From Candidatus Tayloriibacteriota bacterium (GTDB taxonomy: Bacteria > Patescibacteriota > Minisyncoccia > Phycocordibacterales > PALSA-1337): a DNA stretch of 64,000 nucleotides. The notes under the pieces were generated by a model. The model was not told the DNA's origin. It searched no databases and worked only from the letters and a program-made list of their open reading frames with translations. The translations under genes were made by a program, and so were the position numbers. The DNA lies in assembly GCA_016215455.1 (NCBI GenBank), contig JACRJP010000004.1, forward strand, positions 91,787 through 155,786, read 5' to 3'. Within the stretch, counting starts at the first letter, position 1. Every line of letters starts with the position of its first letter. Of this stretch, positions 3,410-48,715 are shown piece by piece.

Positions 3410-3588
3410 ATTAAAAAATTAATTATCTTCAGAAAGAGACTCTACTACCGTAAAATTACCAAGGATAACTGAATCATAAAAAGTAACCCCGATACTCAAG
3501 ATAACTAACAAAACTATAGAAAAAGAAAGTATTTTTGTTGCTTTATCCATAAAGGATTTTATGATAAAATCTTAGTAACAATTATACC

Positions 3589-20960: not shown

Positions 20961-21737
20961 CTATTTTTTAACTGTTACCCATCGCATCTGTTGAATATTG
21001 ATTGGAGTCTTAAAATAGATCGCAACAAAAGCTCGAGCAGGATCAGTTGTCACATATTCAACAACACCAAATAGCCCTTCATACAATGCAGGAATAGTTA
21101 CCGGATCACCAGGAACAATTTTAAATTCACGAGGAACAATAGCTTCATATACACCTCCTCCTTTTCCAATAGCAGTAGCTCGCACTGAATCCTTTCCCAA
21201 CAATACCTCATATGTCTGATCAGGAGATGAGAACAACACCACCTTTGAACTATGTTCATAGACATCAACCACTCTACCAATGAGTGTTGATGAGGCGTAC
21301 ACATCTTTATTCACCTGTATTCCTTCAGCAGAACCTGCATCGATGATGATCGTATCGTATGGAGATTGTGGAGGTACACTTAAAACTGCAGCAAGTATTT
21401 CTTGATGAGTATTTTGTCGACCAAACATTTCTTTGAGTCGAGTATTCTCTTCACGCAAAAGAGAAATCTCTGCCCGAAGAGTTTCTGGTGATGATGACGC
21501 AAGATCAGAAGGAACTGGGTCACGGATGATTTGAATTTGATGCTGTACTGCTAATAAAGGAGTGAGTACTCGCAACAACAATCCTGTAAAAAATCTTGGG
21601 AAGATAATGTGTACGAGAATGAAACAACCAAGAATGGTTGCCACTATAACCGTAGGTCGATTATTTCGTTGTTGTTCTCTATTACTTTGTCGCAGGTAAT
21701 TCATCTTCGTTTTGTATGAGAGACTCTCGATATTCAT
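20961..21737 (-). CDS. mreC: rod shape-determining protein MreC
   Basis: N-terminal TM, coiled coil, C-terminal beta domain. True start is probably an internal Met to avoid the 56-nt overlap with mreB. Confidence 0.75.
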   Translation of the reverse strand: MNIESLSYKTKMNYLRQSNREQQRNNRPTVIVATILGCFILVHIIFPRFFTGLLLRVLTPLLAVQHQIQIIRDPVPSDLASSSPETLRAEISLLREENTRLKEMFGRQNTHQEILAAVLSVPPQSPYDTIIIDAGSAEGIQVNKDVYASSTLIGRVVDVYEHSSKVVLFSSPDQTYEVLLGKDSVRATAIGKGGGVYEAIVPREFKIVPGDPVTIPALYEGLFGVVEYVTTDPARAFVAIYFKTPINIQQMRWVTVKK

Positions 21738-22743
21738 CGATGTTTTCTAGTATAACACCCGTACCACGTGCAATAGCAGTCAAAGGGTCCTCAGCGATAT
21801 GAACAGGGATTCTCAAAGTATCAGCAAGAAGCTTATCGAGACCTTTAATGAGTGCCCCGCCACCAACAAGATGGATACCTCGATGCATCACATCAGAGAG
21901 AATTTCAGGAGGGGTTGTTTCAAGAACTTCTTTAGTTGCCTCAACAAGAAGTTCAATTGATGATGCCATAGCTTCACGAATATCAGAGTCAGTTACCACC
22001 ACCTCTCGAGGAAGACCAGTAATGAGATCACGACCACGGATCGAAGACTCCATTGGTTCACCTGATGCTACGGTACCAATTTGCATCTTAATATATTCTG
22101 CGGTTTTTTCTCCAATGAGAATTTTAAATTCATTACGAATATACGAAATGATATCAGTGTTCAGCTTATCACCTGCAACTCGAAGATTCTTTGAACGAAC
22201 TATACCGCCAAGAGAAATCACTGCAATATCGGTCGTCCCTCCTCCAATATCAACGATCATTGAACCAACTGGTTCATGAATAGGTAAACGAATACCAATT
22301 GCACCAGCCATAGGTTGCTCTACGATGTACACCTCGCGTGCTCCTGCATTCTTTGTTGCATCACGCACAGCACGAATCTCTACGTTTGTAACACCACATG
22401 GTACTCCGACAACCACTCGTGGACCAAGCATTTTCTTAGAAAAAGATTCTGCTTTCTTGATAAGGTATGCAAGCATTTCTTCTGTCACTTCAAAATCTGA
22501 GATCACTCCATCAACAAGAGGTCGCACTGCAACAATGTGAGCAGGAGTTCGTCCTAACATATCTTTTGCTGCTTGACCCACAGCAACTACACGACCAGTT
22601 TTCTGATTAACTGCAACCACCGAAGGTTCATTCACCACAATTCCCTTTCCTCGAACATAGACAAGAGTATTGGCAGTACCGAGATCGATCCCGATATCAT
22701 TTGAAAGTGATGTGCCAAATTTTGTCTTGAAGAAATCAAACAT
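21682..22743 (-). CDS. mreB: rod shape-determining protein MreB (actin homolog)
   Basis: GIDLGTANTLVYV phosphate-1 motif; DIGGGTTDIAVISLGGIV. Confidence 0.9.
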   Translation of the reverse strand: MFDFFKTKFGTSLSNDIGIDLGTANTLVYVRGKGIVVNEPSVVAVNQKTGRVVAVGQAAKDMLGRTPAHIVAVRPLVDGVISDFEVTEEMLAYLIKKAESFSKKMLGPRVVVGVPCGVTNVEIRAVRDATKNAGAREVYIVEQPMAGAIGIRLPIHEPVGSMIVDIGGGTTDIAVISLGGIVRSKNLRVAGDKLNTDIISYIRNEFKILIGEKTAEYIKMQIGTVASGEPMESSIRGRDLITGLPREVVVTDSDIREAMASSIELLVEATKEVLETTPPEILSDVMHRGIHLVGGGALIKGLDKLLADTLRIPVHIAEDPLTAIARGTGVILENIDEYRESLIQNEDELPATK

Positions 22744-28813: not shown

Positions 28814-29530
28814 TTATATTTTTCTAAATCTCATTTTAGTAATGAGCCACATCATTCTAAAACCAAGTTTTGCTGCCTTCCATATATCTCCAGTATACAT
28901 TGATTCCCCAATACGCTGACGATACATGACGGGGACTTCAATGGGTTTAAACCCGCGACGAATCGTCCATACCATAAATTCTGGAGAGAATTTACCTCCC
29001 CCATCAGACGTAGCAAAAAGATCTTGAATTTTAGTAAGTGCAGAACGAGAAATGAGCTTATACGTACAGCCCACATCTGTAAAAGTTGAACCGTTATGAA
29101 GTACCTCCAAAAACTTTGCGACAAACCAATTTCCAAAACGAACAGGAAATGGCATAAAAGCACCTGACCAAATAGCTGCACGTGATGTGCGTGTTCCAAA
29201 TACGACTTCATAATCATTACTGTAGACCAGAAGCTTTTCTATATCTTTTGCATCAAACGTACCGTCAGCTTCACACATGACAATGAGATCACCTGTTGCT
29301 TCCTTGAGACCTCGCATGAGAGCATGTCCATAACCTTGATGCTCAGTCTCTCGAATATGTATCGCTTTAGTTTTCTGAATCTCAGCAGCGGTATTACCAC
29401 GAGCATTATTATCAACAGCAATTACTTCATCCACAAAGCCAGTATTGAAAAAGTCCTGGATGACTGCTGCAATGCTTTTTTCTTCATTATATGTAGGTAA
29501 CACCACACTGACCTTCTTTTTGTGATACAT
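28814..29530 (-). CDS. family 2 glycosyltransferase (polyprenyl-phosphate sugar transferase-like)
   Basis: VVLPTYNEE, DxD-type acidic motif (MCEADG), GT2 fold. Confidence 0.8.
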   Translation of the reverse strand: MYHKKKVSVVLPTYNEEKSIAAVIQDFFNTGFVDEVIAVDNNARGNTAAEIQKTKAIHIRETEHQGYGHALMRGLKEATGDLIVMCEADGTFDAKDIEKLLVYSNDYEVVFGTRTSRAAIWSGAFMPFPVRFGNWFVAKFLEVLHNGSTFTDVGCTYKLISRSALTKIQDLFATSDGGGKFSPEFMVWTIRRGFKPIEVPVMYRQRIGESMYTGDIWKAAKLGFRMMWLITKMRFRKI

Positions 29531-29558
29531 AGAAATTTACACACATACTACCATTAAA

Positions 29559-29594
29559 CCTACTTCTTTGAAATAATTGTCTTCTTATATGTAA
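29559..29594. repeat. direct repeat copy 1 (remnant 3' end of the mreB-like gene)
   Basis: 36-bp match to 30166-30200 with 2 mismatches. On the minus strand it encodes ...TYKKTIISKK* like the intact gene end. Confidence 0.7.
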
Positions 29595-29637
29595 TGAAGA
29601 CTCTCTTTAGAAAATGGATGGCCATTCTAGAATAATA

Positions 29638-29666
29638 TTGACATACTTAAATAGTAGTGTTAATTT
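29638..29666 (+). promoter_or_regulatory. sigma70-like promoter (TTGACA-N17-TGtTAATTT)
   Basis: TTGACA at 29638-43, 17-nt spacer, extended -10 GTGTTAATTT. Confidence 0.5.
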
Positions 29667-29773
29667 AGGTATTAAGCTCTTGAATAAACCCGAGGGCGGA
29701 AGATACCTGTAAATTGTATTGAATTATAGAGCTCTGGTATATCCTTCCGCCTCATAAGCGGAAAGGAAGAACT

Positions 29774-30073
29774 ATGAGCGAAGTCGCTCCTCACATCACG
29801 TGCACCATTCTTTGGAATGGTGGGTGGGATGATTACCTCGTTGATATCAGTGAGACCACTGATGCCCCTGCAACTGGAATTGGTCCCGATTGGTGGAAAC
29901 ATCATCCAAACGGAACCTTTACCACACCAGGTGGTTGGTGGATCCTGTGTCGTTACTTGAACTACGACCAGTTCAACGGTAATCCTGCCATACCCAACCC
30001 CCAAAAAGGCAGGGGTGTATATCCTGACACCAAAGGGATACGCATCCTCAAACATCTTGGTGGAGGCGATTAA
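29774..30073 (+). CDS. small Trp/Gly-rich hypothetical protein (G+C-rich insert)
   Basis: 99-aa ORF with RBS GGAAAGGAAG 4 nt upstream. Preceded by a structured leader. The overlapping minus-strand ORF was rejected. Confidence 0.4.
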   Translation: MSEVAPHITCTILWNGGWDDYLVDISETTDAPATGIGPDWWKHHPNGTFTTPGGWWILCRYLNYDQFNGNPAIPNPQKGRGVYPDTKGIRILKHLGGGD

Positions 30074-30165
30074 ACAACTAACCGAGGGCCTCGTATGCCA
30101 GCCGGATAAATCAGCACGGTCACACCATTCGGGATGTGATCATTTTTATTTTTAAACTTTATAAC

Positions 30166-30200
30166 CCTACTTCTTTGAAATAATTGTCTTCTTATACGTA
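30166..30200. repeat. direct repeat copy 2 (functional 3' end of the mreB-like gene)
   Basis: Matches 29559-29594. Confidence 0.7.
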
Positions 30201-31180
30201 TCGAGGTGATCGAGTGCAATACCAGTTCCCTTTACCACACAAAAGAGTGCATCATCAGCAAGACGAGCCTTTACTCCAGTTCGTCGATACACAAGTTCAG
30301 GAAGGTTACGGAGAAGTGATGAACCGCCAGTCATAGTAATACCCTGATCGATAATATCAGCAGCAAGCTCGGGTGGAGTTTCTTGAAGGACATCTTTGAT
30401 CGCCTTGATCATATCCCGAAGTTCTTTATTAATCGCCTTTACGATTTCATTTGTTTTAATCTCTGTTGAACGTGGAAGACCTGAAACAAAATCACGTCCC
30501 TTCACTGTCATGACAAATTCTTCTTCAAGTGGAATAGCTGAACCAATTTTAATTTTAATTTGTTCTGATGTCTTATCACCGATAGCAAGATTGAATGTCT
30601 TCTTTATATAATCAGCAATAGCAGCATCAATACGATCACCAGCACATTTTACTGATGTACACGCCACAATACCTCCAAGTGAAATCACCGCAACATCAGT
30701 TGTACCTCCTCCGATATCAACTACCATGTGTCCAACTGCTTCTTGAATAGGGATACCGGCACCAATAGCTGCGAGAATCGGCTCCTTAACCACGTACGCA
30801 TTTTTGGCCCCTGCCTTAAGTGCAGCTTCAATCACCGCACGACGTTCAGTCGATGTAATACCAGCGGGTACTGACACCATGACATCGGGTTTGAAAATAT
30901 TCCACTTCCCTAAGGCTTTATCAATAAAATAACGAAGCATCGCTTCAGTCACACGATAGTCAGCAATTACCCCATCACGCATCGGTCGATATGCAATGAT
31001 ATTTTCAGGAGTACGCCCAATCATCTCTTTGGCATCAAGACCTACTGCCAAGATCTTCTTATCATGTTCAGACACTGCAACAACCGAAGGTTCATTCAAA
31101 ACAACCCCTTTTCCAGGAACAAAAACAAGAGTGTTTGCTGTCCCAAGATCAATACCGATTTTTTTACTCCAGAGTGACAT
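30167..31180 (-). CDS. MreB/Mbl-family actin-like protein (second paralog)
   Basis: GIDLGTANTLVFV, DIGGGTTDVAVISLGGIV; 337 aa. Confidence 0.8.
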   Translation of the reverse strand: MSLWSKKIGIDLGTANTLVFVPGKGVVLNEPSVVAVSEHDKKILAVGLDAKEMIGRTPENIIAYRPMRDGVIADYRVTEAMLRYFIDKALGKWNIFKPDVMVSVPAGITSTERRAVIEAALKAGAKNAYVVKEPILAAIGAGIPIQEAVGHMVVDIGGGTTDVAVISLGGIVACTSVKCAGDRIDAAIADYIKKTFNLAIGDKTSEQIKIKIGSAIPLEEEFVMTVKGRDFVSGLPRSTEIKTNEIVKAINKELRDMIKAIKDVLQETPPELAADIIDQGITMTGGSSLLRNLPELVYRRTGVKARLADDALFCVVKGTGIALDHLDTYKKTIISKK

Positions 31181-31205: not shown

Positions 31206-32033
31206 CTATATAACAAAATCTGGTTGCTGCGCTCTTCGCTCCACTTCTTCGTTGAAAAGTCTCGCTATAATATCAAAAGGGACCTCCTTAAAATCAGGAC
31301 CAATTTCATTCGACATAGTATGAAAGACGAGTTCGGGGAAATTTAAATATTTGTCGCTATAATTCACCTTACCTACAAAAAAGCTACCTGGTCGTAAAAA
31401 TCTACCAACCGTAGCCTCTTTTAATTCAGAGTGCTGAGCAAGTATCTCACCACAACAATCTTTCATTTTCATCAAAGTTTGATCATCAATCGTTTTCATA
31501 TATGAACCGATAATCTTCGAATCGAAATCATACCCGGTGTCAGCTCTTCGCTCTTCTTCAGTAACGCGAATAGTTTCAGATAGAATATCCTCTAATTCTT
31601 GACCACTTATTTCAAGATCTCTAAATCGTATCCCGTCATCATGCTTTGCTCGATCAGAAGGAAGAGTAGCAAGATGGACTTTTTTAAATACACCATCTAT
31701 AAATTCTTCAAAAGTAGGAGGTGCTGGATGGTTGAGAAATGTAGAGTTGGATACCAATCTATCGTAGCCATCTCCACGACGTGACATTTGTCTTAAAAAA
31801 TAATCAAGCCCACCGTGTGTCGCTCGTGACGGAACTTCGGAAGACCAATCGAGTGAGCCTTTAAGACCCGCAATCTTGTCTCGTATTTGGGTAAGACGAC
31901 GTACTGACATATGAAAAGACGCTATTCCTTCCTGAAATTGTGTAAGAAATGCATCGCGAAGCTCTCGAATCTTTTCTGCACGAGCATCAGGGATGACAGG
32001 AGCTTCGGATTCAGCAGATGGAAATTCATTCAT
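31206..32033 (-). CDS. hypothetical protein
   Basis: 275-aa acidic ORF co-directional with the mreB paralog. Confidence 0.45.
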   Translation of the reverse strand: MNEFPSAESEAPVIPDARAEKIRELRDAFLTQFQEGIASFHMSVRRLTQIRDKIAGLKGSLDWSSEVPSRATHGGLDYFLRQMSRRGDGYDRLVSNSTFLNHPAPPTFEEFIDGVFKKVHLATLPSDRAKHDDGIRFRDLEISGQELEDILSETIRVTEEERRADTGYDFDSKIIGSYMKTIDDQTLMKMKDCCGEILAQHSELKEATVGRFLRPGSFFVGKVNYSDKYLNFPELVFHTMSNEIGPDFKEVPFDIIARLFNEEVERRAQQPDFVI

Positions 32034-32062: not shown

Positions 32063-33136
32063 TTAACGAAGCATCTCCAAAAAATCAACGCTAGACACTT
32101 TCACACTCTGAGGAACAACATGAATTTTCTTGTCTATACCAAGAAGTTCTGCTAATCCGTTCACTGTACGAACAAAATTCAAACCATTCAGCAAAAGATT
32201 CTTTTCATGCTCATCAATCTCAGTACCCAAAGAAAGTTTTATGAGAATCGCTACAGTTTTATCCATCACACGATTATCACCTGGATATCGTGCATCGACC
32301 AAAGAATATGAGATTTTATCTTCTTTTTGATACACAACGACATTATCCTGTCCTGCAAGATCGAGTATTTCTCCAGTGTCTTCTGTATAGATAATTATTT
32401 TCTTAATTAATTCCCGTAACAATTTGTGTACATTTTCGTCAGTTTCAGACGCACTAAGAAGAGCTCGTAATGAATCCGAGGATTGAACACTAAGAAATTC
32501 TTCTTTATCCAATTTTTCTTCTGTACCTTGCTCAAAAACTAAACGATCAGTTATCTTCTTGTATACGTCAGCGCGTACCCCTTCTTTTTCAGCATATCCC
32601 GTAACAAGAGAAAGGCGATCAGGATCATTCATAGCCTCCACTCGTTTCTGTATTGTGATAACACTCCACGCTTCATTAATTTCAGGTATTACACCTTCTC
32701 TACAAACAACCTTCAATATATCTTGGGTAACAGGAATTTTGATTAAAGCCTCTTTTTGACCAGGAACATGCTCAGCTCCAAAATACTGTTTGAGTTGTTG
32801 ATGATAAACCCCCTCTCTTTTAAGAAAATCTTGTACAGCAGATTTTACCTCTTCTTCCAATGAATCAGCAGGTAATCCGTGTGTCATATTCCATTCAAGT
32901 ATCCCTCTCAGTGCCTCTGTCGCAACTTTCACCACAACACCTTGATGCTCTGGTATGTCGTATACAATATGCTCTCCACCTTTTGCTATAAATTTTGGTT
33001 GATATCTTGTAACTAAATCATGCTCAACCGCATTAAGAGTAAATCTTTCTTCCTCAGGAACAGTTCTCTCAACCGCCGTAGAATCTGTTTCTGTCAGAAT
33101 GTCGTTAGGGGTAGTTTTGAGAGTTTCAGGACTCAT
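32063..33136 (-). CDS. hypothetical protein
   Basis: 357 aa. The N-terminal KGGEHIVYDIP is Gly-loop-like, so it may be an atypical kinase-like fold. Speculative. Confidence 0.45.
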   Translation of the reverse strand: MSPETLKTTPNDILTETDSTAVERTVPEEERFTLNAVEHDLVTRYQPKFIAKGGEHIVYDIPEHQGVVVKVATEALRGILEWNMTHGLPADSLEEEVKSAVQDFLKREGVYHQQLKQYFGAEHVPGQKEALIKIPVTQDILKVVCREGVIPEINEAWSVITIQKRVEAMNDPDRLSLVTGYAEKEGVRADVYKKITDRLVFEQGTEEKLDKEEFLSVQSSDSLRALLSASETDENVHKLLRELIKKIIIYTEDTGEILDLAGQDNVVVYQKEDKISYSLVDARYPGDNRVMDKTVAILIKLSLGTEIDEHEKNLLLNGLNFVRTVNGLAELLGIDKKIHVVPQSVKVSSVDFLEMLR

Positions 33137-39705: not shown

Positions 39706-39768
39706 CCATCTTGTACCGCTTCACTTTTTACTAAAATTTGTTATGATAGCGCTGTGCTTGAATACATT

Positions 39769-39844
39769 CCGCGGTAGCTCAGTTGGTAGAGCAATCCCCT
39801 GTTAAGGGATGGGTCCTAGGTTCGAGCCCTAGCCGCGGAGCCAA
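39769..39844 (+). tRNA. tRNA-Asn (anticodon GTT), CCA encoded
   Basis: TCCGCGG acceptor, GCTC/GAGC D-stem, anticodon loop CTGTTAA, T-loop TTCGAGC, 3' GCCA. Confidence 0.9.
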
Positions 39845-39928
39845 CGAAAAAGACTTGATTTATTCAGGTCTTTTTCTATATACCCAGACTAGTTTCGAAC
39901 TTTTTGATATACTATTAACAAAAATGAC

Positions 39929-40420
39929 ATGTCAAAACTTCAATTAGAAATTGAACGAAAGTTTCTTCTCTCAAAACTCCCTGATGTTAGTGCAATTACA
40001 GCGATTCCCTACGAACGCTATTTCTTAGAACGAACTAAAGAAGTCGAGGTTCGTATTCAGAGAAAAGGAAATATCTTCACGTATCAGAGAAAAGTAGAGG
40101 TACCAGGAATTGGAAGAGAACGTTCCGAAGACCACGAAATCTCTGAGGAAGAATTCAATAAGCTCAAAATCACAGCTTCAAAAGCAATTCTTCGCACTCG
40201 ATACGATCTCTCCCCCATGATCGCCATTCAGGTATATCATGGAGACCATGAAGGACTCATTCGCTACGAAGTTGAGTTCCCGACATCAGAAGATGCTACA
40301 AAATTTCAACCAGAGCCATGGATGGGAAAAGAAATTACCGATTCACCCTTGGGCCGTGATGGTAAACTTCTAGATCTTAGCCCAGAACAATTTACCGCCG
40401 AACTAGCAAGATATTCTTAG
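39929..40420 (+). CDS. CYTH-domain protein (CyaB/thiamine-triphosphatase-like)
   Basis: Hallmark N-terminal EIERKFLL and downstream acidic motifs. Confidence 0.7.
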   Translation: MSKLQLEIERKFLLSKLPDVSAITAIPYERYFLERTKEVEVRIQRKGNIFTYQRKVEVPGIGRERSEDHEISEEEFNKLKITASKAILRTRYDLSPMIAIQVYHGDHEGLIRYEVEFPTSEDATKFQPEPWMGKEITDSPLGRDGKLLDLSPEQFTAELARYS

Positions 40421-40427
40421 TCTTTTA

Positions 40428-40596
40428 TGTGTGTACATTTGAATGTTGTAAACTGTGTAAGTGACATAAGATAATTCACTTCTTTTTTCATTACATCAAT
40501 ATCTTCTACCACCTCACTCCACTCAAAAGTTCGAAACGCGTGTAGCCAAGCGAGCTCGTAAAAAATCACCTTACAATTAAGGTGATTTTTTATTGG
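40428..40596 (+). repeat. intergenic repeat element copy A ending in a terminator hairpin (40561-40590)
   Basis: Shares TGTGyACATkTGAA..., ACCACCTC..TCAAArGTTCGrAAAC and a terminal AAAATCAyCTTAC-loop-GTAAGrTGATTTTT hairpin with copy B. Confidence 0.5.
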
Positions 40597-40648
40597 CTCA
40601 TTTAAATTTTCCCAAACTGTTTAGTTGTGATCGAAACACTATCACTTT

Positions 40649-40677
40649 TTGACATAATATGATTATCGTGTTAATTT
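40649..40677 (+). promoter_or_regulatory. sigma70-like promoter (TTGACA-N17-TGtTAATTT)
   Basis: TTGACA at 40649-54, spacer 17, GTGTTAATTT. Nearly identical to the 29638 promoter. Confidence 0.5.
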
Positions 40678-40705
40678 GCTTTTAGATCCTCAACCTCGAA
40701 ATCAA

Positions 40706-41491
40706 ATGAAGACCCCTCTCGTTCTCGCCGCGCTATGCACCCTTTTCGTCGTCAGTTCCTGCTCCCCCAAAAAGGAAGAACTAGCAACACGCTCGGACAA
40801 CACCCAGCCAAACATGGTCGTAATTAGCATCGACTCGACTAGTGCATTTGTCCATCCTCAGAATCTCTACGCATGGCTTGATGCTCATAGACCTGAACAA
40901 GTCTACGTCGGACAAATAAACCTACTTAAGATAGGGACAAACTCATACGCGGTCACAGCACCCCATGTGATGACCTCACCATTACTTCAGTTCCCCTTTC
41001 CTAACTCAGAAGAGCTTGGTCAGTGGACGAACTCCGCAGATGGACGTGAAATTTCATTTGCCCAGCTGCGCGATTGGAAAAAGTTTGGTTTCAGTGTTGA
41101 GCCTGTCGAAGCACAGGCGCCGACAATCAACGCACCCGCTTCAATCAAGACGACGATGTTCGTCAGTGCAGAAGAAGGTGTTCGAGACATGGATATGCCA
41201 GGGACACTCAAAATACTTTCTTCTCCTGAACACATCAAACTCTTAGGCGAGACGATGGATCCGGGATCAGCTTTTACAGATCGTCTTCTGAGAAGGGCGC
41301 CGACCAAGCCAGTTCTGGCAATGATCATCCCTGAACAGTATCGAAGATTTTTGCGAGGAAGCTCAGGAGCATTCGTGTGGCAAAACGGGCATCCTGTTGG
41401 AGTGTTCGTCGCGGCATATTTCAATGAAGGAATGCCACCCGTGACCTACATTGAACCCCTGCTTGATTCTGTGGCTGTGACAAAACCCTAA
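40706..41491 (+). CDS. lipoprotein (hypothetical, G+C-rich)
   Basis: Signal peptide with lipobox LFVVSSC. ATG at 40706 chosen because the track start 40676 lies inside the promoter. Confidence 0.5.
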   Translation: MKTPLVLAALCTLFVVSSCSPKKEELATRSDNTQPNMVVISIDSTSAFVHPQNLYAWLDAHRPEQVYVGQINLLKIGTNSYAVTAPHVMTSPLLQFPFPNSEELGQWTNSADGREISFAQLRDWKKFGFSVEPVEAQAPTINAPASIKTTMFVSAEEGVRDMDMPGTLKILSSPEHIKLLGETMDPGSAFTDRLLRRAPTKPVLAMIIPEQYRRFLRGSSGAFVWQNGHPVGVFVAAYFNEGMPPVTYIEPLLDSVAVTKP

Positions 41492-41518
41492 CCCCGTCAA
41501 TCGACGGATTTTTTATTT

Positions 41519-41625
41519 TTGTGCACATGTGAACGATATAAGATACTTCACCACCACCTCCATTCAAAGGTTCGGAAACACATGTGCACAAAATCATCTT
41601 ACTTAATTGTAGGATGATTTTTAGT
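41519..41625 (+). repeat. intergenic repeat element copy B ending in a terminator hairpin (41591-41622)
   Basis: See copy A. Confidence 0.5.
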
Positions 41626-41649
41626 TGACCAGAACAATACTAGAATTTA

Positions 41650-41677
41650 TTGACATCTATATCCCAAGATGTAATCT
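41650..41677 (+). promoter_or_regulatory. sigma70-like promoter (TTGACA-N16-TAATCT)
   Basis: TTGACA at 41650-55, TAATCT at 41672-77. Confidence 0.45.
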
Positions 41678-41798
41678 TAAAAATAGAAAACTAGTTTAGG
41701 CTGAACCAATGAGTGCATTTTAATAAAGTGCTTTCATTGGTTCAGCACTAGACAGTGGAATGCAGTCCACAACATAAAAGGAGGACTTCTCTGCACGG

Positions 41799-41915
41799 AT
41801 GTCCAAAAGGATACCTTTGTGTTCAAAAAAGTGTCTACGGCGCGAAGCGGTTGCAGGCTCATGCTCTGTGACGTCACTACCCAAATCCTTTGACGTACCG
41901 ATGATGTAATCGTTG
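41799..41915 (+). CDS. candidate 38-aa Cys-containing micro-ORF
   Basis: ATG 13 nt after the strong SD AAAAGGAGGA. Downstream of the promoter and a 13-bp inverted-repeat hairpin. May instead be non-coding. Confidence 0.2.
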
Positions 41916-42116
41916 GTAATAGTTGGGAGGCAAAGACAAGAAAGCCTTAATTTCTTGGAGAGTGGAGAACTGTCGCAAGAGGTACACTCCCATACTCGAT
42001 GCTCAGCATGAAATGGCTGGGCAATTTTTATATCTGATACTCACAAGCACATCCTGAAAATTTAATTGGCTGGACTAAGACTAAAAACAATTTCAAACTT
42101 TGGTATAATAAACGAC

Positions 42117-42518
42117 ATGAAAATTGATCCTCGACTTCACCACTACTGTCAGAATATAACAAAAGGAAATCTTGATACGGTTGTTGAAATGTACCAACTT
42201 CTCAATTTCAAAGTAGTCTACACTCCCCCAAACGGCGATTGGATCATGGTAGGTCAAGATCAACTTCGTTTTGCTATTCAAATAACTCAAGTGGAAGATA
42301 CACCCATTGTTGATATTGATATAAAAAGACGAACTCATATCGCTTTCCTCTCGGATAATCCTCAAGAAGTTATTTCAAAAGTTGAAGCTTGGGCAAACAA
42401 TAAAAATATCAAATTCAGACAAGGTGGATGGTCCGATAAAGAAAAATACTTTGACCTACCTGATATTTTCGTCAACTTTGTAGTTGAGGTGATGCACACA
42501 TCTATTGAAGAAAAATAG
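42117..42518 (+). CDS. hypothetical protein, possibly VOC/glyoxalase-like
   Basis: ATG at 42117 preceded by a TATAAT box. Weak beta-alpha-beta-beta-beta pattern only. Confidence 0.35.
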   Translation: MKIDPRLHHYCQNITKGNLDTVVEMYQLLNFKVVYTPPNGDWIMVGQDQLRFAIQITQVEDTPIVDIDIKRRTHIAFLSDNPQEVISKVEAWANNKNIKFRQGGWSDKEKYFDLPDIFVNFVVEVMHTSIEEK

Positions 42519-42555
42519 TAAATTTATTTCAAAAAAGCATAGAACAATTTAAAGA

Positions 42556-44082
42556 TTAATTAGATTTATTGTACTTAGAATTATTAAGGACTTTCCAGAT
42601 CTCAACCATAGCTAAAGTATCCAAATGGCAATAATCCTTAAGTGCCTGTATTTTCATATCTCTTTCCTCTTTGGAATATTCCCCTGAAACAATTCGATTC
42701 CATGTATCTGAAGCTGTACCACCTTCTTGGATATGCATATTTTTATAAGACAAATGTGGTACTAATGCTGGTAGAACATATTTAATTGAAGCGCTTCCCT
42801 TAAATTTAGGATGATCATACATTGTGGTCTTTCCGAAAAACGGAATAATCAAATCTACCACTCGATCATTAACCTCCTCCATGAAAGCTTTATATTCTGG
42901 TAAACCTTCCCCAAGCTGTTCATTGATACTTTTTTCAAACCTCTGACTCCACACGATCACACTACCTATTTTAGGGAGATGTTTTTGCAATGCTTCAGCA
43001 AAATATTTATCGGGACAACCCTGTTCTGTATAGATAAAATCACAATGTGTTAATTCATCGCCATATGAGTTAATGACATGGAGTGAAAATTGAAATGGAA
43101 TCTGTTGATATGGTTTGTGTCCGCTATATTTAGGTATTGCAGATGGGTATGTTTCGTAATCAAGGAAAGCCAAGGGGTATTTCATTGTTTCTAAAAACTC
43201 TGAAATACCAGCACTATCGATATATTCTTTATCCGATTGCGCTGTGTCTACCTGTCTTCGCTGATTATCTGATAATTCAAAGTCGCTAGGCACATCGTGA
43301 ATACTTAGAATATTATTATCTACAAGCTCTGTGAGTTTCTTCTTAGTTATTCTAGCTATTGCATGGACCGGATATTCAGGCAGGTCGGGATTAGAATATT
43401 CTGAAGTGGTGCAATGAGAATTCCATCCTTTAAGAATGCAGTCACAGTGGCCAGCTGGCTCTTTGTCACTTACAAGTAGCTCATACACACCTTCCATCTT
43501 TTGTTTTACTTCCTCAAGTTTTTCATTCGCCTGATTAGTAACATCCTCGATTATAAAAAGTCCCTTGAGATTAATATCTCCAATTCGAACATACTCCTTG
43601 TTGAGCCGAATAAGATTGAGTGTTCCTATTTCAATACCGAGATCATTTAAAATGTTCTTCTGAAAGGCGATGTCGATTAAGTAATCTTCTGTTTTACGAC
43701 CACCGCCTTCCTCAGAAGATGTTGATGATTTAACCTCATACAAATCGTAGAGGTTTGTGGCACTATTCCATACAAAAATATCTGAAGCTGTTATAAACTT
43801 TTCAGTAGAAAATACCGGCTGATAAATGACAGCTGTTTTGTCTGTCATAAGCTTTTTAGTTTGCTCTGTGTCATCTCGAGACTCGACAAGTACCCCATTA
43901 GGAAAGAGACCTCTAGCTAGCTCGTCAATTTGGTTACCCGTATCAATGATATTCAACTCAAAAGAAGAAAGTGGATACTTCCTATAAATATCTGGTTTAT
44001 GAATCTTGAGCCATGCATTCTTAGCGCAATCGAGGCATGTTAGGAAATTAGTTTTTGAGAGGAGGGTCATAGGAATTACCAA
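42556..44082 (-). CDS. DUF2779-family protein (predicted Cas4-like PD-(D/E)xK nuclease N-terminal half + RNase H-like exonuclease C-terminal half)
   Basis: C-terminal motifs LAFLDYETYPSAIP and YQQIPFQFSLH. N-terminal Cys cluster C..C ... GHCDCILKGWNSHC. Last gene of the RM-linked operon. Confidence 0.6.
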   Translation of the reverse strand: MVIPMTLLSKTNFLTCLDCAKNAWLKIHKPDIYRKYPLSSFELNIIDTGNQIDELARGLFPNGVLVESRDDTEQTKKLMTDKTAVIYQPVFSTEKFITASDIFVWNSATNLYDLYEVKSSTSSEEGGGRKTEDYLIDIAFQKNILNDLGIEIGTLNLIRLNKEYVRIGDINLKGLFIIEDVTNQANEKLEEVKQKMEGVYELLVSDKEPAGHCDCILKGWNSHCTTSEYSNPDLPEYPVHAIARITKKKLTELVDNNILSIHDVPSDFELSDNQRRQVDTAQSDKEYIDSAGISEFLETMKYPLAFLDYETYPSAIPKYSGHKPYQQIPFQFSLHVINSYGDELTHCDFIYTEQGCPDKYFAEALQKHLPKIGSVIVWSQRFEKSINEQLGEGLPEYKAFMEEVNDRVVDLIIPFFGKTTMYDHPKFKGSASIKYVLPALVPHLSYKNMHIQEGGTASDTWNRIVSGEYSKEERDMKIQALKDYCHLDTLAMVEIWKVLNNSKYNKSN

Positions 44083-44396
44083 TTTCTTGGAATAACCGGA
44101 GGTTCTTTCGGATTCACAAGTCTAGTAATTTCTCTTCCATCAAATGATTCTTTTAAGACCTCAACGCTAGATATATTGCTTAGGTATGTTGAAACAACAT
44201 GCGCCCCGTGTGGAACATGAATATCTGCATATCCCAAAAGAAAGTCTTCTTCGTGGTAATGATTCTTCTTCTTTTTTGGAAAAATATCATATGGGGCAAT
44301 ATCGCGAGTTACAAATTCTCCCGTTGTTTCCTTTTGAAAATTAATCCTGATCATTTGTTGAGATTGGATGGCTGAGATTATAATTTGTTTGTGCAT
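44076..44396 (-). CDS. hypothetical protein (106 aa) within the defense operon
   Basis: Overlaps the downstream gene by 7 nt and lies 3 nt from the upstream gene; no recognisable domain. Confidence 0.4.
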   Translation of the reverse strand: MHKQIIISAIQSQQMIRINFQKETTGEFVTRDIAPYDIFPKKKKNHYHEEDFLLGYADIHVPHGAHVVSTYLSNISSVEVLKESFDGREITRLVNPKEPPVIPRNW

Positions 44397-44399
44397 AAA

Positions 44400-45371
44400 T
44401 TATTTTTTTAAGTATTTCTTATAAGCTTCAATTATACTCTCAGCATAAGTGTGTTTATCGGATATTTTCATAGGAAATATATTACTAAAAGTACTCCAAT
44501 CGAATGAAACTTCTTTATTGACCTTAATAGCTTTCATAAAATTATTGAAGTTTTTACGATTATACCCCTGAATATCTCTTACAACTTTAAGTACGTCTTT
44601 GTGGTGATATTTATATTTTGCTAATGCCTCTGTGATTTCTGGTATTCTAACACTTCTTCCCTCATCTGATAGATTAACACCCTGACTCAATGAAATTTTA
44701 TCGTTGGATTGATTATTAATCCCAACAACCATATCAGAATCCTTTATTCTTTTTACATTTTCCAATAAAACCTTAACATTAACTAAAACGCCTTTATTCT
44801 CTTTTAATTGGACTTGCTTTGAATGTACCTCAATCACTTTTTTCATATAACTTTTAACCTCTGACGAAGCATTTTTTAATGAAGAAGTATTTTCAATAAA
44901 ATCAAAATCGGTATATGGTATCTCCGTTGCAACAGGTAAGATATACCAACTTTTATCTTTAATAAGGCTCTTACTAAAATATTTCTGGATAAAATCTTTA
45001 AAGAGGATAATATTTGATTGAATGAGCATATAATCTACTAAATCAAGTCCTTTGTGATAGTGAACGATTTTACATCTTTCTTTATATAGTAATTTTGTAC
45101 TTTGATACCAGTCATCACTATATCTATTACCCAGATTACTCTTGACACATTCAAGACATTCGTCAAAAGGTTTGCTTTCGTCTTTTTTTCTATTATAAAT
45201 CTTTGCCCATTTTTTATTTATAATTAATGCCTTCAAAGCATTTTCCCAAGAATTGACAATCAGAATAACTACGGATTCTGTTCTGTATTTTATTAAAGGC
45301 TTATTGTAGAGTTCAATTGCAAGTGTAATCGATTCTATAGATTTTGATAACAAATTTTCTGAAATAGTCAT
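44400..45371 (-). CDS. hypothetical protein with HEPN-like Rx4H motif
   Basis: 323 aa, very K/N/I-rich, with KERCKIVHYH (R-x4-H). 4-nt overlap with the RM gene stop. Confidence 0.45.
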   Translation of the reverse strand: MTISENLLSKSIESITLAIELYNKPLIKYRTESVVILIVNSWENALKALIINKKWAKIYNRKKDESKPFDECLECVKSNLGNRYSDDWYQSTKLLYKERCKIVHYHKGLDLVDYMLIQSNIILFKDFIQKYFSKSLIKDKSWYILPVATEIPYTDFDFIENTSSLKNASSEVKSYMKKVIEVHSKQVQLKENKGVLVNVKVLLENVKRIKDSDMVVGINNQSNDKISLSQGVNLSDEGRSVRIPEITEALAKYKYHHKDVLKVVRDIQGYNRKNFNNFMKAIKVNKEVSFDWSTFSNIFPMKISDKHTYAESIIEAYKKYLKK

Positions 45372-48300
45372 AAAATATTATCTATTTCTTTCATGGTTTT
45401 TTCAGTTTCCACAAGAGCAACAATCATCTTCTGATAATGTTCTAGATCTTCACTTGAAAGAAGTCTGTCACGTCTATCTTTAAGCCATTTTTGAGCAGGC
45501 TGATATCCGCCAATATAGAAATTCCAAGCAATTTTTGGAACGCCACCAAAATATTGCTTTTCATTTATATAAACCTTACCATCTTTATATTTCGGATATT
45601 TTGCTTCAACAGTATCGCTTCCTGCTTCGGGAAATGTCGTGAGGAGGTTTTTGAGTTTTGGTGATTCCAAAAGGTGAAACTCGCGCAATTCCCTACCCAA
45701 AATAACAAGTGCTTTAAATGAGGCTACGTCCTTCGGGTACGGCACTCGAGGAAAATCAATTTTAAGAAATTCTTTGTATTTTTCTCGATAACTTGGTGAG
45801 TGTAGAACTGCGTAAATATAGTCGAGGATATCTTCAGGGATGATTTTTCCAACAGTTTTTTCTATTTCTTCAATAATTTCTTTATTTAGATTTGGAACTT
45901 TTGACCCATCTTCAGCATAAAGATAAAGTGGGTAAATTTGTTCTGCACCCAGCATGCCAGGTCTTGACCACGATCTTCTATCAATGATGTATTTGGTAAT
46001 AAAACAAGGAGCAGATTCTTCTTGAACAAAGCCTCGTTTTGCAATAAATCCTAGGTTATCTTTAAGCATGTGTCTCATTACTTCAGACCTTGGGCGAGAA
46101 AAAACGCCCTCGCTTTTTAATGAGTATAGTGTATGTCTAACATCGAAAGGTCGATAGAGTATTTCTGAGGAATCAGCAACAATATTTTTAATATCATTCC
46201 TAACAGCGGTCACCTGTTTCTTTTCTACATTATTTCTTTGAGTTATTTCTTCATCTGTTTTTGTTTGAAAGGATTCACGCAACTCATTAATTTCTCTCGT
46301 TGAGAACTTAATCAAAAGATCATCTTTTGCTGAAGTAGCTCCTGAAGAGTGTATGGGAAATAAATTTGAAACAGAAAATCCCTTATTATAATTTCCTTCG
46401 CCTGAAAAATCTTTAGGTGTAAAAAAGTAGTTAGGATGAACACACTTAAGAAAATTCCATTTGAAGTTCTCTAGACTGCCTTTGTTAAGTGACTCAAACT
46501 TATCTTCTCGCTTACCATACAGATCTTTATGGTACACCTCCCCCAACCCTTTCTTCTTTCCTTCATTCTTGACAAAGATATCTATCGAAACTCCCTGCAT
46601 GATATTAAACACATTTTCATCCCTACCACCATCAGGAGCTTTTTCTTTTTTCTTTGAATTTCCATGTAAATTAACAATATAGATTGAATCAAAAGTCTCT
46701 AGTAGATGTTTTCTCATCTGCCGGTGGGTAACACCGTCGATGAAGGAGTTGTTTGTGATCATCGCTACAATACCGCTTCCGTTCTTTTCAATCAGACTCT
46801 CAGATAATCGAATAAATTTTATATAGTCATCAGAAAGTTGTTGTATATTTTTTTCATTCAAATCCTTTTTATACTCTTTAATCAAATCCTGTATCCATTC
46901 TCCCTTATTCTGAGAACTGACGCTATACGGCGGATTCCCCATTACCACCATGATCGGTAACTCATTCTTTACCTTATTCGCCTGATTAGATTCCTCTGTG
47001 ATAGCCTTTCCGAGCCCGATGTCGAAAAGTGTTTTTTCTTCAATTTCAGCTTTTTCTAGAGAGTTTGTCAGATATACACCAAGACGAGTATTTTCTATTT
47101 TTGCACCAGTCTCAGCAATCGTCGAGGAAAGCTTGAGATGTGCAATCGTATACGATGCCATCATCAACTCGAAACCATGCATGCGTAGCAGGAGATCTGC
47201 ATTCACGTACGAAGACCAACGACCTTCCTGTCCCTCGAAAGATTTCTTAATGTGAAGTATAACTTCATTGAGGAATGTACCTGTACCTGTAGCTGGGTCG
47301 AGAATCTGAACCCTATGAATCGGCACTTTATGTCGCTTACCTTGGATCTCTTTGAGAATATCTATTTTTGACGCATCAGCTAGACCTTGTGGTAGATCAA
47401 ACTCTTTTTTCAAAATGTCATCTACTGTTCGAACAATAAATCGGACCACTGGTAGAGGTGTATAGAACACGCCCATTTTCTTACGTTCAACTGAATCATA
47501 TTCTTGAAGGAAGTCTTCATAGAAGTGAATGATGGGGTCACGACTGCTGTCCTTATCAACTTTGTAGTAATTATGAACAATGGCTTGCACATCAGCGTGA
47601 TTAAACTCCTCACAGAGTTCATTCACAATATATTCGATACGTGGATCAAATGAAGATCCGGCTATGTGGTCAAAGAAGTGACGTAGAAATGGATTTGAGG
47701 CAGGAACAAGGTCTCGTGCTTCTTGGCGTGAGAAATTGTCTGTTGTTTTATCATAGTACCTTGCTACAAAGAGACCGTAGACAATTGTCTGAGCGTACAT
47801 GTCAGCAAACTTTGCATGATCAAGATCAGCAAGGAGAAGTTTCTTGATAACCTCATATACACCGAGCAAGTTTTCATTCTTAGGATTCTTTTCATCTTCA
47901 AGAAACTTCTTTACGTTATCTCGAATACGACGAGCCTTACCAGCCATAACTTTTGAGAGCACAGTACCGGATTTGATCGGCTCTTTAGATTCTTTTATGA
48001 AATCTCCAATTGTATCGGCTAAAAGTTGAAACGGACCCTCAAAAGGTTCCACACTGTCTTTGTGTAGCTTTCCAACAATGATTGGATCACTGTAGCGAAT
48101 CCCATTTCTGAAAAAGCGAAAATCAAGACCATTGGTGAGTATAATGTTCGAATAGCCGTAGTAGCGAGTCATCTGCTCACTTTTCTCTATCTCATCAAGC
48201 GAGACATTAATATCTTTTGCCTCTGCATAAGCAATAACAGTCTTTCCTTTGAGAAACACGAAGTCAGGAGCACCATGCTCGCTACGTTTAGGCTCATTGA

Positions 48301-48424
48301 TTACATTCAATCCCGTTGTCTGTTCAAAAAGCTCCTTGAGAGCGGGACGGTAAGAGTGTTCACGTGCATGTCCGCTACTGTAGGTCTCTATTACTTTTTG
48401 AATGAATGTTGCAACTGGAGTCAT
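45368..48424 (-). CDS. Type IIG restriction-modification enzyme (fused PD-ExK endonuclease + gamma-class N6-adenine DNA methyltransferase + C-terminal TRD)
   Basis: N-terminal nuclease motif APDFVF...IAYAEAK. MTase motif I ILDPATGTGTFL and motif IV NPPYS. ATG at 48424 preferred over the GTG-initiated extension to 48520. Confidence 0.8.
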   Translation of the reverse strand: MTPVATFIQKVIETYSSGHAREHSYRPALKELFEQTTGLNVINEPKRSEHGAPDFVFLKGKTVIAYAEAKDINVSLDEIEKSEQMTRYYGYSNIILTNGLDFRFFRNGIRYSDPIIVGKLHKDSVEPFEGPFQLLADTIGDFIKESKEPIKSGTVLSKVMAGKARRIRDNVKKFLEDEKNPKNENLLGVYEVIKKLLLADLDHAKFADMYAQTIVYGLFVARYYDKTTDNFSRQEARDLVPASNPFLRHFFDHIAGSSFDPRIEYIVNELCEEFNHADVQAIVHNYYKVDKDSSRDPIIHFYEDFLQEYDSVERKKMGVFYTPLPVVRFIVRTVDDILKKEFDLPQGLADASKIDILKEIQGKRHKVPIHRVQILDPATGTGTFLNEVILHIKKSFEGQEGRWSSYVNADLLLRMHGFELMMASYTIAHLKLSSTIAETGAKIENTRLGVYLTNSLEKAEIEEKTLFDIGLGKAITEESNQANKVKNELPIMVVMGNPPYSVSSQNKGEWIQDLIKEYKKDLNEKNIQQLSDDYIKFIRLSESLIEKNGSGIVAMITNNSFIDGVTHRQMRKHLLETFDSIYIVNLHGNSKKKEKAPDGGRDENVFNIMQGVSIDIFVKNEGKKKGLGEVYHKDLYGKREDKFESLNKGSLENFKWNFLKCVHPNYFFTPKDFSGEGNYNKGFSVSNLFPIHSSGATSAKDDLLIKFSTREINELRESFQTKTDEEITQRNNVEKKQVTAVRNDIKNIVADSSEILYRPFDVRHTLYSLKSEGVFSRPRSEVMRHMLKDNLGFIAKRGFVQEESAPCFITKYIIDRRSWSRPGMLGAEQIYPLYLYAEDGSKVPNLNKEIIEEIEKTVGKIIPEDILDYIYAVLHSPSYREKYKEFLKIDFPRVPYPKDVASFKALVILGRELREFHLLESPKLKNLLTTFPEAGSDTVEAKYPKYKDGKVYINEKQYFGGVPKIAWNFYIGGYQPAQKWLKDRRDRLLSSEDLEHYQKMIVALVETEKTMKEIDNIL

Positions 48425-48715
48425 ATTACACAATACTTTACCATTTTTGTGGCTAAAAATAAAGATTTTACAATGCAGACACACCCCAATTCTGTTACTA
48501 TTACAAATATGACTTTCCACACAAAGGAGTCCGAAACTTATTGAGTGATCTTAAAAAATCTCTTTTACGGAAGATGGAAGAGATGACATAACAACCAAGG
48601 GTGAGATGAAGCACTGGCACGTTTTCCATGTAATAGCTCGTAAATACTAGCACCACTGTAGGTTACATTCTTTGCTTCAATTTCATGTGATAAAATATAC
48701 GTAACCACTTTTCCC

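Follow-up and report, generated by a model that had tools for sequence, protein, structure and literature searches.

A single-gene cassette bracketed by a 39-nt duplication of the mreB 3′ end in a Candidatus Tayloriibacteriota genome

The window analysed here is a stretch of 64,000 nucleotides (64 kb) from contig JACRJP010000004.1 of a Candidatus Taylorbacteria metagenome-assembled genome (MAG). Near its middle the 3′ end of an mreB paralog occurs twice, and the two copies bracket a 568-bp segment that is absent from the same site in related genomes. The segment holds a single transcription unit for a Trp-rich protein of 99 residues, and homologous units are found at unrelated loci in other genomes. 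No recombinase is encoded within the insert. We propose with moderate confidence that a foreign, self-contained cassette entered the gene end by a recombinase-independent insertion of the long target duplication type.

Results

A duplicated mreB 3′ end brackets the insert

The direct repeat occupies positions 29555-29593 and 30162-30200. It is 39 nt long, 37/39 positions are identical, and the start-to-start spacing is 607. A sequence-only reading of the window had described a 36-bp repeat with 2 mismatches around a G+C-rich segment of about 570 bp. The repeat is real and slightly longer than that, with coordinates that were right to within a few bases, and the bracketed segment (29594-30161) measures 568 bp. 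Together with one repeat copy it accounts for 607 bases (568 + 39) of extra DNA relative to the empty site. Read on the minus strand, the repeat comprises 1 nt, the last 10 mreB codons (TYKKTIISKK), the stop codon and 5 nt past the stop.

Copy A (30162..30200, minus strand; T ACG TAT AAG AAG ACA ATT ATT TCA AAG AAG TAG GGTTA) is the functional copy. According to the sequence and the repeat alignment it completes the mreB paralog, and the earlier proposal that the insertion regenerates the 3′ end of this gene stands. Copy B (29555..29593, minus strand; T ACA TAT AAG AAG ACA ATT ATT TCA AAG AAG TAG GTTTA) is orphaned. It lies in intergenic DNA rather than in a conserved gene and adjoins the original spacer of 29 nt; a gene for a family-2 glycosyltransferase (GT2) starts 24 nt downstream of it. 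The two mismatches sit near the two ends of the repeat, and the one in coding sequence is synonymous (ACG/ACA). At these variable positions the empty site reads G..T, the gene-side copy (attL) G..G and the orphan copy (attR) A..T. Both window copies also have AAG where both empty sites have AAA.

The 30-nt core of the repeat occurs exactly 2 times in the 64-kb window, against 0 occurrences expected from 100 shuffles. It is the sole close-range direct repeat of such quality there; one other match is 74% identical. The search for further copies of the repeat or its cargo that had been suggested for this DNA returned, within the window, the flanking pair and the single cassette, with no further copy of the 39-nt sequence. 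The repeat core was not found in viral contigs, and its one match in JGI metagenomes (L009) is unrelated and due to chance. No terminal inverted repeats are present at the ends of the 568-bp insert.

The inserted DNA is also distinct in composition. It has about 50% G+C in a genome of 39%. The value is 0.49-0.51 over 29775-30149, compared with 0.31-0.45 in the flanks, and 0.50 in the open reading frame (ORF) for the 99-aa protein, compared with 0.39 around it.

Related genomes carry an empty site

The target gene (30167..31180, minus strand; Pfam MreB_Mbl, E=1.8e-135) is left intact by the insertion. A canonical mreB-mreC pair is located at 20961-22743, and because this second mreB (353 aa) adjoins mreC, the insertion-bearing gene is an extra paralog. 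The next gene on the minus strand is the GT2 gene (28814..29530), which is separated from mreB by 29 nt in the empty-site genomes and by 636 nt in the window.

Two contigs carry the same locus without the insert. L001, a 52.5-kb Logan contig from another sample, encodes the window MreB protein residue for residue. The two mreB genes differ by 12 substitutions, all of them synonymous, and are identical over the 375 nt upstream of the repeat. With flanks that are 98.0-98.7% identical to the window, L001 represents a sister strain, and its mreB stop is followed by 29 nt and the GT2 start. L014 has the same arrangement of mreB stop, 29 nt and GT2, with one repeat copy. Its GT2 protein is 96% identical, and its DNA is 81-87% identical to the window and 82.6% identical to L001. 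L014 is colinear with L001 across the junction without gaps, and its 39 nt align to both window copies. Copies A and B each match the L001 target at 37/39 positions, the same value as between A and B.

Comparison with related genomes, proposed earlier as a check, therefore yielded a clean empty site with one repeat copy in both L001 and L014. The empty state is common to two lineages that differ widely in their distance from the window, which makes the insert a derived gain. These alignments indicate that the empty state is ancestral and that 607 bases were gained in the window lineage. A further contig, L002, is 100% identical to the window, ends exactly at the repeat and is uninformative on the junctions. 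The closest relatives of the GT2 protein (78% identical; L010-L013) were rejected as evidence on the site, as they have a different upstream neighbour.

The insert is a complete transcription unit

A single complete transcription unit makes up the insert; it lies on the plus strand and converges with mreB. Its promoter (29638..29666) contains a -35 box TTGACA (29638-29643), a 17-nt spacer and an extended -10 element TGT-TAATTT (29658-29666). This promoter was read by eye from the sequence, and a simple consensus scan did not report it. TTGACA or TTGACT is found at the matching position in five homologous cassettes (window, L003, L015, L016, L017). A structured 5′ leader of about 100 nt (29673..29773, plus strand), delineated by folding and alignment, is followed by the ORF for the 99-aa protein (29774..30073, plus strand; NCBI locus tag HZA80_03140), which is annotated as hypothetical. 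The unit ends in an intrinsic-terminator-like hairpin (30118-30141) followed by ATTTTTATTTTT (together 30118..30153, plus strand). The sequence-only reading had assigned this segment a promoter of its own, a structured leader and a Trp-rich ORF at 29774..30073. All three were recovered: the -35 box is perfect and conserved in position in the five cassettes, the leader folds better than shuffled sequences, and the protein contains 6 Trp.

Homology to L015, the closest DNA relative, extends from the -35 box to AAACT past the T-run of the terminator, at about 30158 and 2-4 nt from copy A. The window insert is therefore essentially only the cassette. The remaining 44 nt upstream of the promoter (29594..29637, plus strand) are unique inserted DNA without counterpart in the homologous cassettes or the empty site. 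With one transcription unit and 44 nt between the repeats, the insert has no integrase, as had been stated before. The suggestion of a decayed element was not supported, the insert being a complete cassette and not a remnant. No Pfam domain of an integrase, transposase or recombinase was found in the 568 bp or in the 35 ORFs scanned among the 67 window ORFs of at least 110 aa.

The 3′ untranslated region (30074-30109) shares several features with L015 and L017: a conserved TAAAC after the stop codon, a Shine-Dalgarno (SD)-like GGAGG or GAGGG about 20 nt further on, and a 4-codon ORF. In the window this micro-ORF (30095..30109, plus strand) reads MPAG* behind the SD-like GAGGG. MPAG* is also present in L015, with 3 synonymous differences, L017 has MTHW*, and the micro-ORF is missing in L003, L016 and L018; its significance is uncertain.

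Other readings of the segment were discarded. An antisense ORF of 127 aa (29672..30055) has no Pfam match and was taken as a shadow of the G+C-rich coding strand. Rfam and ARAGORN rejected a known structured RNA (tmRNA, RNase P, group I/II intron or riboswitch) as the origin of the G+C-rich block. A consensus scan picked up a promoter-like TTAACA-18-AATATT at 29663-29634 of the minus strand; it overlaps with the promoter of the cassette, is directed towards the GT2 operon and might offset the separation of that operon from mreB.

Homologous cassettes occupy unrelated loci

At least 8 other genomes carry the homologous unit as a cassette standing alone, and its surroundings differ from one genome to the next. 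It lies between an 83-aa ORF and dnaB (L003), directly after a tRNA-like gene (L004), between a DKNYY gene and a cyclodipeptide-synthase gene (L015), between a SIMPL gene and nusG (L016), between a lysyl-oxidase-like gene and a lipase gene (L017), and between an RNB/S1 ribonuclease gene and a 131-aa gene (L018). On the contig that encodes P0135, a family member follows the gene for ATP-synthase subunit a.

Significant flanking repeats were detected at two further loci, L018 and L008, by a diagonal search with shuffled controls. The L018 repeat (1145-1195 and 1762-1812) is about 51 nt long, with 37/46 identical positions in the scored part and a score of 26 compared with a null maximum of 14. 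The first copy is the end of the upstream RNB/S1 gene, 17 codons plus the stop; the second lies beyond the cassette terminator, 12 nt away from where the convergent downstream gene ends. Among the 17 codons 7 are identical, 6 differ synonymously and 3 non-synonymously, and the stop is kept in frame (TAA/TAG). Third codon positions account for 10/14 of the differences between the copies, and the longest identical run is 14 nt. The L018 cassette is co-directional with its target gene, whereas that of the window is convergent.

At L008, the repeat (3733-3813 and 4273-4353) is 81 nt long, 84% identical and highly structured, and flanks the family gene. Its second copy takes in the final 6 nt of a MiaB-like gene together with the apparent terminator of that gene. 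The MAG is labelled Gammaproteobacteria, and the flanks have only 32% G+C. No sequence is shared among the repeats of the window, L018 and L008, whose lengths are 39, about 51 and 81 nt.

A distant family member is part of a larger assembly in L007 (2501-5089). Four elements of about 55 nt, spaced by 738, 1064 and 736 nt, are arranged there between two convergent genes. The copies share a terminator-like hairpin with compensatory stem changes and a conserved TTGAGCTGGCTACTAGAGGACGTTAGAAC. The units between them are a pair of unknown genes, a 101-aa ORF with the family member, and a RelB/ParE pair. L007 is an integron-like or repeated-insertion cassette array.

In L004, the tRNA-like gene upstream of the cassette (3494-3873; anticodon loop CTGTGAA) is split by about 330 nt and was missed by ARAGORN and Rfam. 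It is probably an intron-containing tRNA gene, with the cassette right after its 3′ end.

The leader RNA has alternative pairing segments

The leader is common to eight cassettes of the subfamily with proteins of about 100 aa (window, L003, L004, L015-L019), and in the window it folds better than shuffled sequences (z=-3.1). It can be divided on the plus strand into the segments P1a (29675-29680), P2a (29692-29707), P1b (29728-29733) and P2b (29736-29753), followed by the SD-containing segment (29758-29769). In the OFF state predicted by RNAalifold from the unedited MAFFT alignment, P1a pairs with the 5′ part of P2a. P1b and P2b form a long 3′ hairpin with the SD region and AUGAGC. This OFF fold is the minimum-energy structure in 6/7 sequences folded with ViennaRNA. 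In the predicted ON state P2b pairs with P2a, which leaves the SD and AUG free.

The lower part of the P2 helix is 95% paired in a hand-made alignment, with compensatory changes at 4/9 pairs. The covariation score of P2 is 0.374, compared with 0.154 for shuffles and at most 0.143 for slid registers, in an alignment that was fitted by hand and in which the upper part of P2 pairs by construction. The P1 pairing has an invariant core of 4-5 bp, and its covariation is weak except in L019. P1 and P2 may form either a pseudoknot or mutually exclusive alternatives.

We propose from the predicted folds that the leader would gate translation of the cargo by hiding the SD and AUG. Translational riboswitches and attenuator leaders are alike in having four segments with alternative pairing, in which one strand pairs either upstream, with the SD free, or downstream, with SD and AUG sequestered. 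The compensatory changes over the 8 cassettes add to this likeness. Unlike them, the cassette leader matches no Rfam family: Rfam 15 gave no match to the leader or the insert at the gathering threshold, and only chance-level matches with E above 0.4. A covariance model of the leader retrieved only its eight training sequences in the 169 kb of DNA compared, with a single copy in the window.

The cargo belongs to a rare protein family

Members of the family are recognised by two motifs, LWNGGWDxYLVD close to the N-terminus and GVRILRHLGGGD at the extreme C-terminus. When 1.84 billion representative proteins were searched in full with HMMER, only 9 relatives came out at E<1e-3. The profile search of 5.8 billion clusters identified 46 family clusters, all of them unnamed and none with a Pfam domain. 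The 99-aa protein itself has no match in Pfam, PHROG, PADLOC or PDB. Its AlphaFold2 model has a predicted local distance difference test (pLDDT) score of 88.7. As a confident model with no fold match in the libraries searched, the protein has a novel-looking fold. Across the family the ORF has a G+C content of 0.49-0.58 in hosts of 0.32-0.51.

Two candidate functions were tried and abandoned. The C-terminal RILRHLGGGD is reminiscent of a ubiquitin-like beta-grasp or ThiS/MoaD protein, an assignment that was ruled out by fold, sequence and profile searches. Phage or defence cargo was rejected on the lack of PHROG and PADLOC matches and of any family member in IMG/VR viral contigs.

A 21-nt stretch that encodes DWWKHHP (29894-29914; GATTGGTGGAAACATCATCCA) is identical in L003, although the proteins of these two cassettes share only 62% identity. 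The match may reflect a constraint in addition to that on the protein, or chance.

Neighbouring genes

With the same orientation and 29 nt between them, mreB and GT2 are probably co-transcribed in the empty genomes. As a consequence of the insertion, a convergent cassette with its own terminator hairpin now parts mreB from GT2 by 636 nt.

Other differences from the sister strain lie upstream of mreB. A 357-aa ORF (32063-33136, minus strand) without Pfam match, about 2 kb from the cassette, has been deleted in L001. Its final codons (ATGCTTCGT) are all that L001 retains, joined close to the start region upstream. Between this ORF and mreB, a 275-aa ORF (31206-32033, minus strand) is about 81% identical to its L001 counterpart (277 aa), compared with 98-99% for mreB and the outer flanks. 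Either the gene is hypervariable or recombination has replaced it.

Further along the window (39768-48520), tRNA-Asn is followed by several ORFs without Pfam match and then by DUF2779 and DUF3644 proteins and a 1050-aa ORF. The region may be a genomic island, and no integrase was found among the ORFs scanned.

Discussion

Long target duplication was defined as a class by genome comparison in the work of Kobayashi's group (Nobusato et al. 2000; Furuta et al. 2010, PMC2853133). Its traits are an indel between strains, direct repeats of more than 30 bp that align to one unique target copy, near-identical repeat copies and the lack of a mobility gene (PMC2853133). The window site resembles it in the indel and in the repeat. 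L001 (98-98.7%) and L014 lack the 607 bp between colinear flanks, and both copies of the 39-nt repeat align to the single copy of the empty site. As far as the 64-kb window shows, the repeat is unique, and neither the insert nor the 35 ORFs scanned contain a recombinase. The G+C content is unlike that of the host and the indel is intraspecific, as in the published cases. For each copy against the target and for copy against copy, the identities in H. influenzae are 45/46, 45/46 and 44/46, and there the repeat overlaps a gene 3′ end by 15 or 2 bp (PMC2853133). The same kind of overlap, as at HI0105, is seen here, and 37/39 identical positions compare with the published 44/46.

The cargo is different. 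Published cases carry restriction-modification systems that are several kb long, and the driver proposed for them is DNA breakage caused by the cargo (PMC2853133). Here the cargo is one 99-aa protein with a regulatory leader, and the host is a Patescibacteria genome. One cargo family also shows the pattern at three unrelated targets. The published cases come mostly from naturally competent species (PMC2853133). Natural competence has been demonstrated in Saccharibacteria, another lineage of Patescibacteria (PMC10633639), which makes DNA import plausible here by analogy with that other lineage.

The events could have been as follows. A 568-bp foreign cassette composed of promoter, leader, 99-aa ORF and terminator would have entered the 3′ end of the mreB paralog, most probably by host recombination or repair acting on imported DNA. 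Its entry would have duplicated 39 bp of the target, with the final 10 codons, the stop and 5 nt. Of the two copies, one would then complete mreB and the other lie orphaned beside the old downstream spacer, so that no gene is damaged. Translation of the cargo would normally be blocked by the leader through sequestration of SD and AUG, and freed by some signal. The unit flanked by 39-bp repeats could in principle loop out and re-enter, or pass between strains by homologous recombination. The sequences show the repeat, the indel and its direction as a gain, a complete and recurring cassette, and an insert free of recombinase genes; how the insertion was made enzymatically, how the DNA was imported and what the cargo does are inferred.

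Several points weigh against this account. The label of long target duplication describes a pattern and not a mechanism, and the enzymology is not established even in the published cases. The scan for recombinases covered about half of the window ORFs (35/67 of those of at least 110 aa) on a contig of 222 kb. No flanking repeat is detectable in 5/8 of the close cassettes. The placement of the mismatches at the ends of the repeat, the synonymous ACG/ACA difference and the third-position bias in L018 fit recombination with an incoming homologous gene end somewhat better than duplication followed by decay. The third-position excess in L018 has p ~0.004 against fully neutral decay and ~0.04 if one copy was under selection. 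We had considered this codon bias as proof that the copies diverged in different lineages, a claim downgraded with the change from 0.004 to ~0.04; the bias is suggestive and not decisive. The mismatch pattern in the window fits a crossover between copies that differed slightly and duplication followed by two mutations equally well. Finally, the integrated junctions are seen in the MAG contig alone: an exact look-up of the 99-aa protein in the contig index returned no match, and the integrated junction is without an independent assembly.

The last point, together with the end of L002 exactly at the repeat, would suit an assembly artefact in which a graph loop or a strain-variant bubble was threaded at the shared 31-39-mer. 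In an assembly graph with k=31 a branch is expected wherever a 31-mer is shared, and a contig stops there. We nevertheless regard an artefact as highly improbable. The copies differ at both ends as real attL and attR junctions would, the same architecture is present in independent assemblies (L018 from JGI, L008 from an NCBI MAG), and any 607-bp molecule lacking a replication gene must itself have come from an integrated copy. It is just as improbable that the cassette is ancestral and was precisely deleted by recombination between the repeats in the lineages of L001 and L014. Deletion between 39-bp repeats would leave one copy, as seen, and L001 does have another deletion 2 kb away. Two independent precise losses would be needed, however, one of them in a genome that is only 81-87% identical. 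The foreign G+C content and the different locus of the cassette in every other genome also argue against ancestry, and the repeat itself would still need an insertion.

An incoming homologous gene end would be supplied by a Campbell-type integration, in which a circle of about 607 bp with the cassette and a captured mreB 3′ end recombined with the chromosome via 31-39 bp through host homologous recombination. The circle would have looped out of another strain between its repeats, or formed through illegitimate circularisation, with attL and attR being donor-resident hybrids. Its junction is predicted to read ..GTCTTCAT/TACATATAAG..GTAGGGTTA/TAAAGTTT... The pattern of G..T in the empty site, G..G on the gene side and A..T in the orphan would result from a single exchange between G..T and A..G within the identical core of 31 nt. 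The coding mismatch is synonymous, and mreB equals L001 for 375 nt upstream of the repeat, so the donor tract would be confined to the repeat. In L018 the copies differ mainly at third codon positions and both have an in-frame stop, and the model would account for the differing 'attP' sequences of one cargo. We still consider it rather unlikely. It needs a prior event for the first repeat-flanked copy or the first circle, and the circle junction was not observed. Homology of 31-39 bp is close to the minimum for RecA-dependent exchange, and the longest uninterrupted identity in L018 is only 14 nt. The AAG in both window copies, compared with AAA in both empty sites, would require an additional polymorphism for a single crossover.

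Duplicated gene ends are also made by integrases. Among integrative elements, those with a replacement 3′ end include the islands that target tRNA and tmRNA genes and the prophages e14 and 21 at icd. As in the window, the target 3′ end is duplicated, the gene remains functional, the displaced copy lies at the far end of the insert and the copies differ synonymously. Unlike the cassette, such elements have their own integrase, are kilobases long and use one att sequence per family, none of which was found here. The 568-bp insert holds only the cassette, without a tyrosine or serine recombinase of its own, and no common att core is shared by the window, L018 and L008; 5 other cassettes are repeat-free. 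A tyrosine or serine integrase that acted in trans or was since lost, with the 39-bp repeat as the att core, would explain the clean empty site, the regenerated gene end and the imperfect repeat ends, which resemble attL/attR hybrids. The position of the L004 cassette directly after a tRNA-like gene would also suit it. An att-specific integrase does not fit, because the repeats of related cassettes are unrelated, vary in length (39, about 51 and 81 nt) and come in either orientation. The DNA between the repeats is exactly one conserved cassette and not the remnant of a larger element, and the window has no second repeat pair or cargo copy. As no integrase was found among the window ORFs scanned, a decayed element of this type is unlikely, and we give the integrase explanation as a whole little weight. 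The earlier interpretation as a site-specific integration was right about the indel and the regenerated 3′ end; its integrative element with a lost integrase gives way to a lone, recurring cassette with unrelated repeats.

Other classes of mobile DNA correspond to the insert in part. Inspection of the repeat for a 28-bp Xer/dif site (IMEX, pdif) with 11-6-11 organisation, made by eye and not as a profile search, gave only ATAA-N8-TTAT, which has the wrong spacing and poor arms. DNA transposons, insertion sequences and miniature inverted-repeat transposable elements do not fit the lack of terminal inverted repeats, a duplication of 39 bp (vs 2-14 bp) and the single copy in the window. Integron cassettes are likewise small single-gene units, and distant family members are found between repeated structured elements of about 55-81 nt, in L007 beside RelB/ParE. 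The window repeat differs from theirs in being an mreB coding end without attC-like R''/R' boxes or hairpin, and the cassette brings a conserved promoter of its own. The window ORFs scanned included no integron integrase, and the repeat contains no attC-like palindrome. The minimal mobile elements of Neisseria are small cassettes without mobility genes between conserved genes, moved by transformation and host recombination (PMC3787668). They resemble the cassette in being single genes or small units that are present or absent between conserved flanks. They differ in that they enter by double crossover in the flanking genes, without target duplication (PMC3787668).

Insertion with long target duplication remains our favoured explanation for the window. 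A broader version of it is possible, though we hold it only tentatively and think it somewhat unlikely. A minimal recombinase-free mobile cassette may spread among Patescibacteria and other small-genome bacteria, inserting at gene 3′ ends and terminators with duplications of 40-80 bp. Serial hits would then build arrays such as L007, and the cassette would encode a previously unseen fold under an undescribed translational riboregulator.

Accessory-gene gain in the ultra-small, streamlined genomes of Patescibacteria is poorly understood. Here the recent gain of a single gene can be followed by comparing near-identical strains, as the sequences contain the empty site, the two junctions and the donor-type cassette. 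On our reading, long target duplication would extend beyond restriction-modification genes and to a new phylum. With a size of about 600 bp and three unrelated targets, this recurring substrate would lend itself well to work on the insertion mechanism. The rare protein family and its conserved four-segment leader RNA are candidates for the functional follow-up of sequence dark matter.

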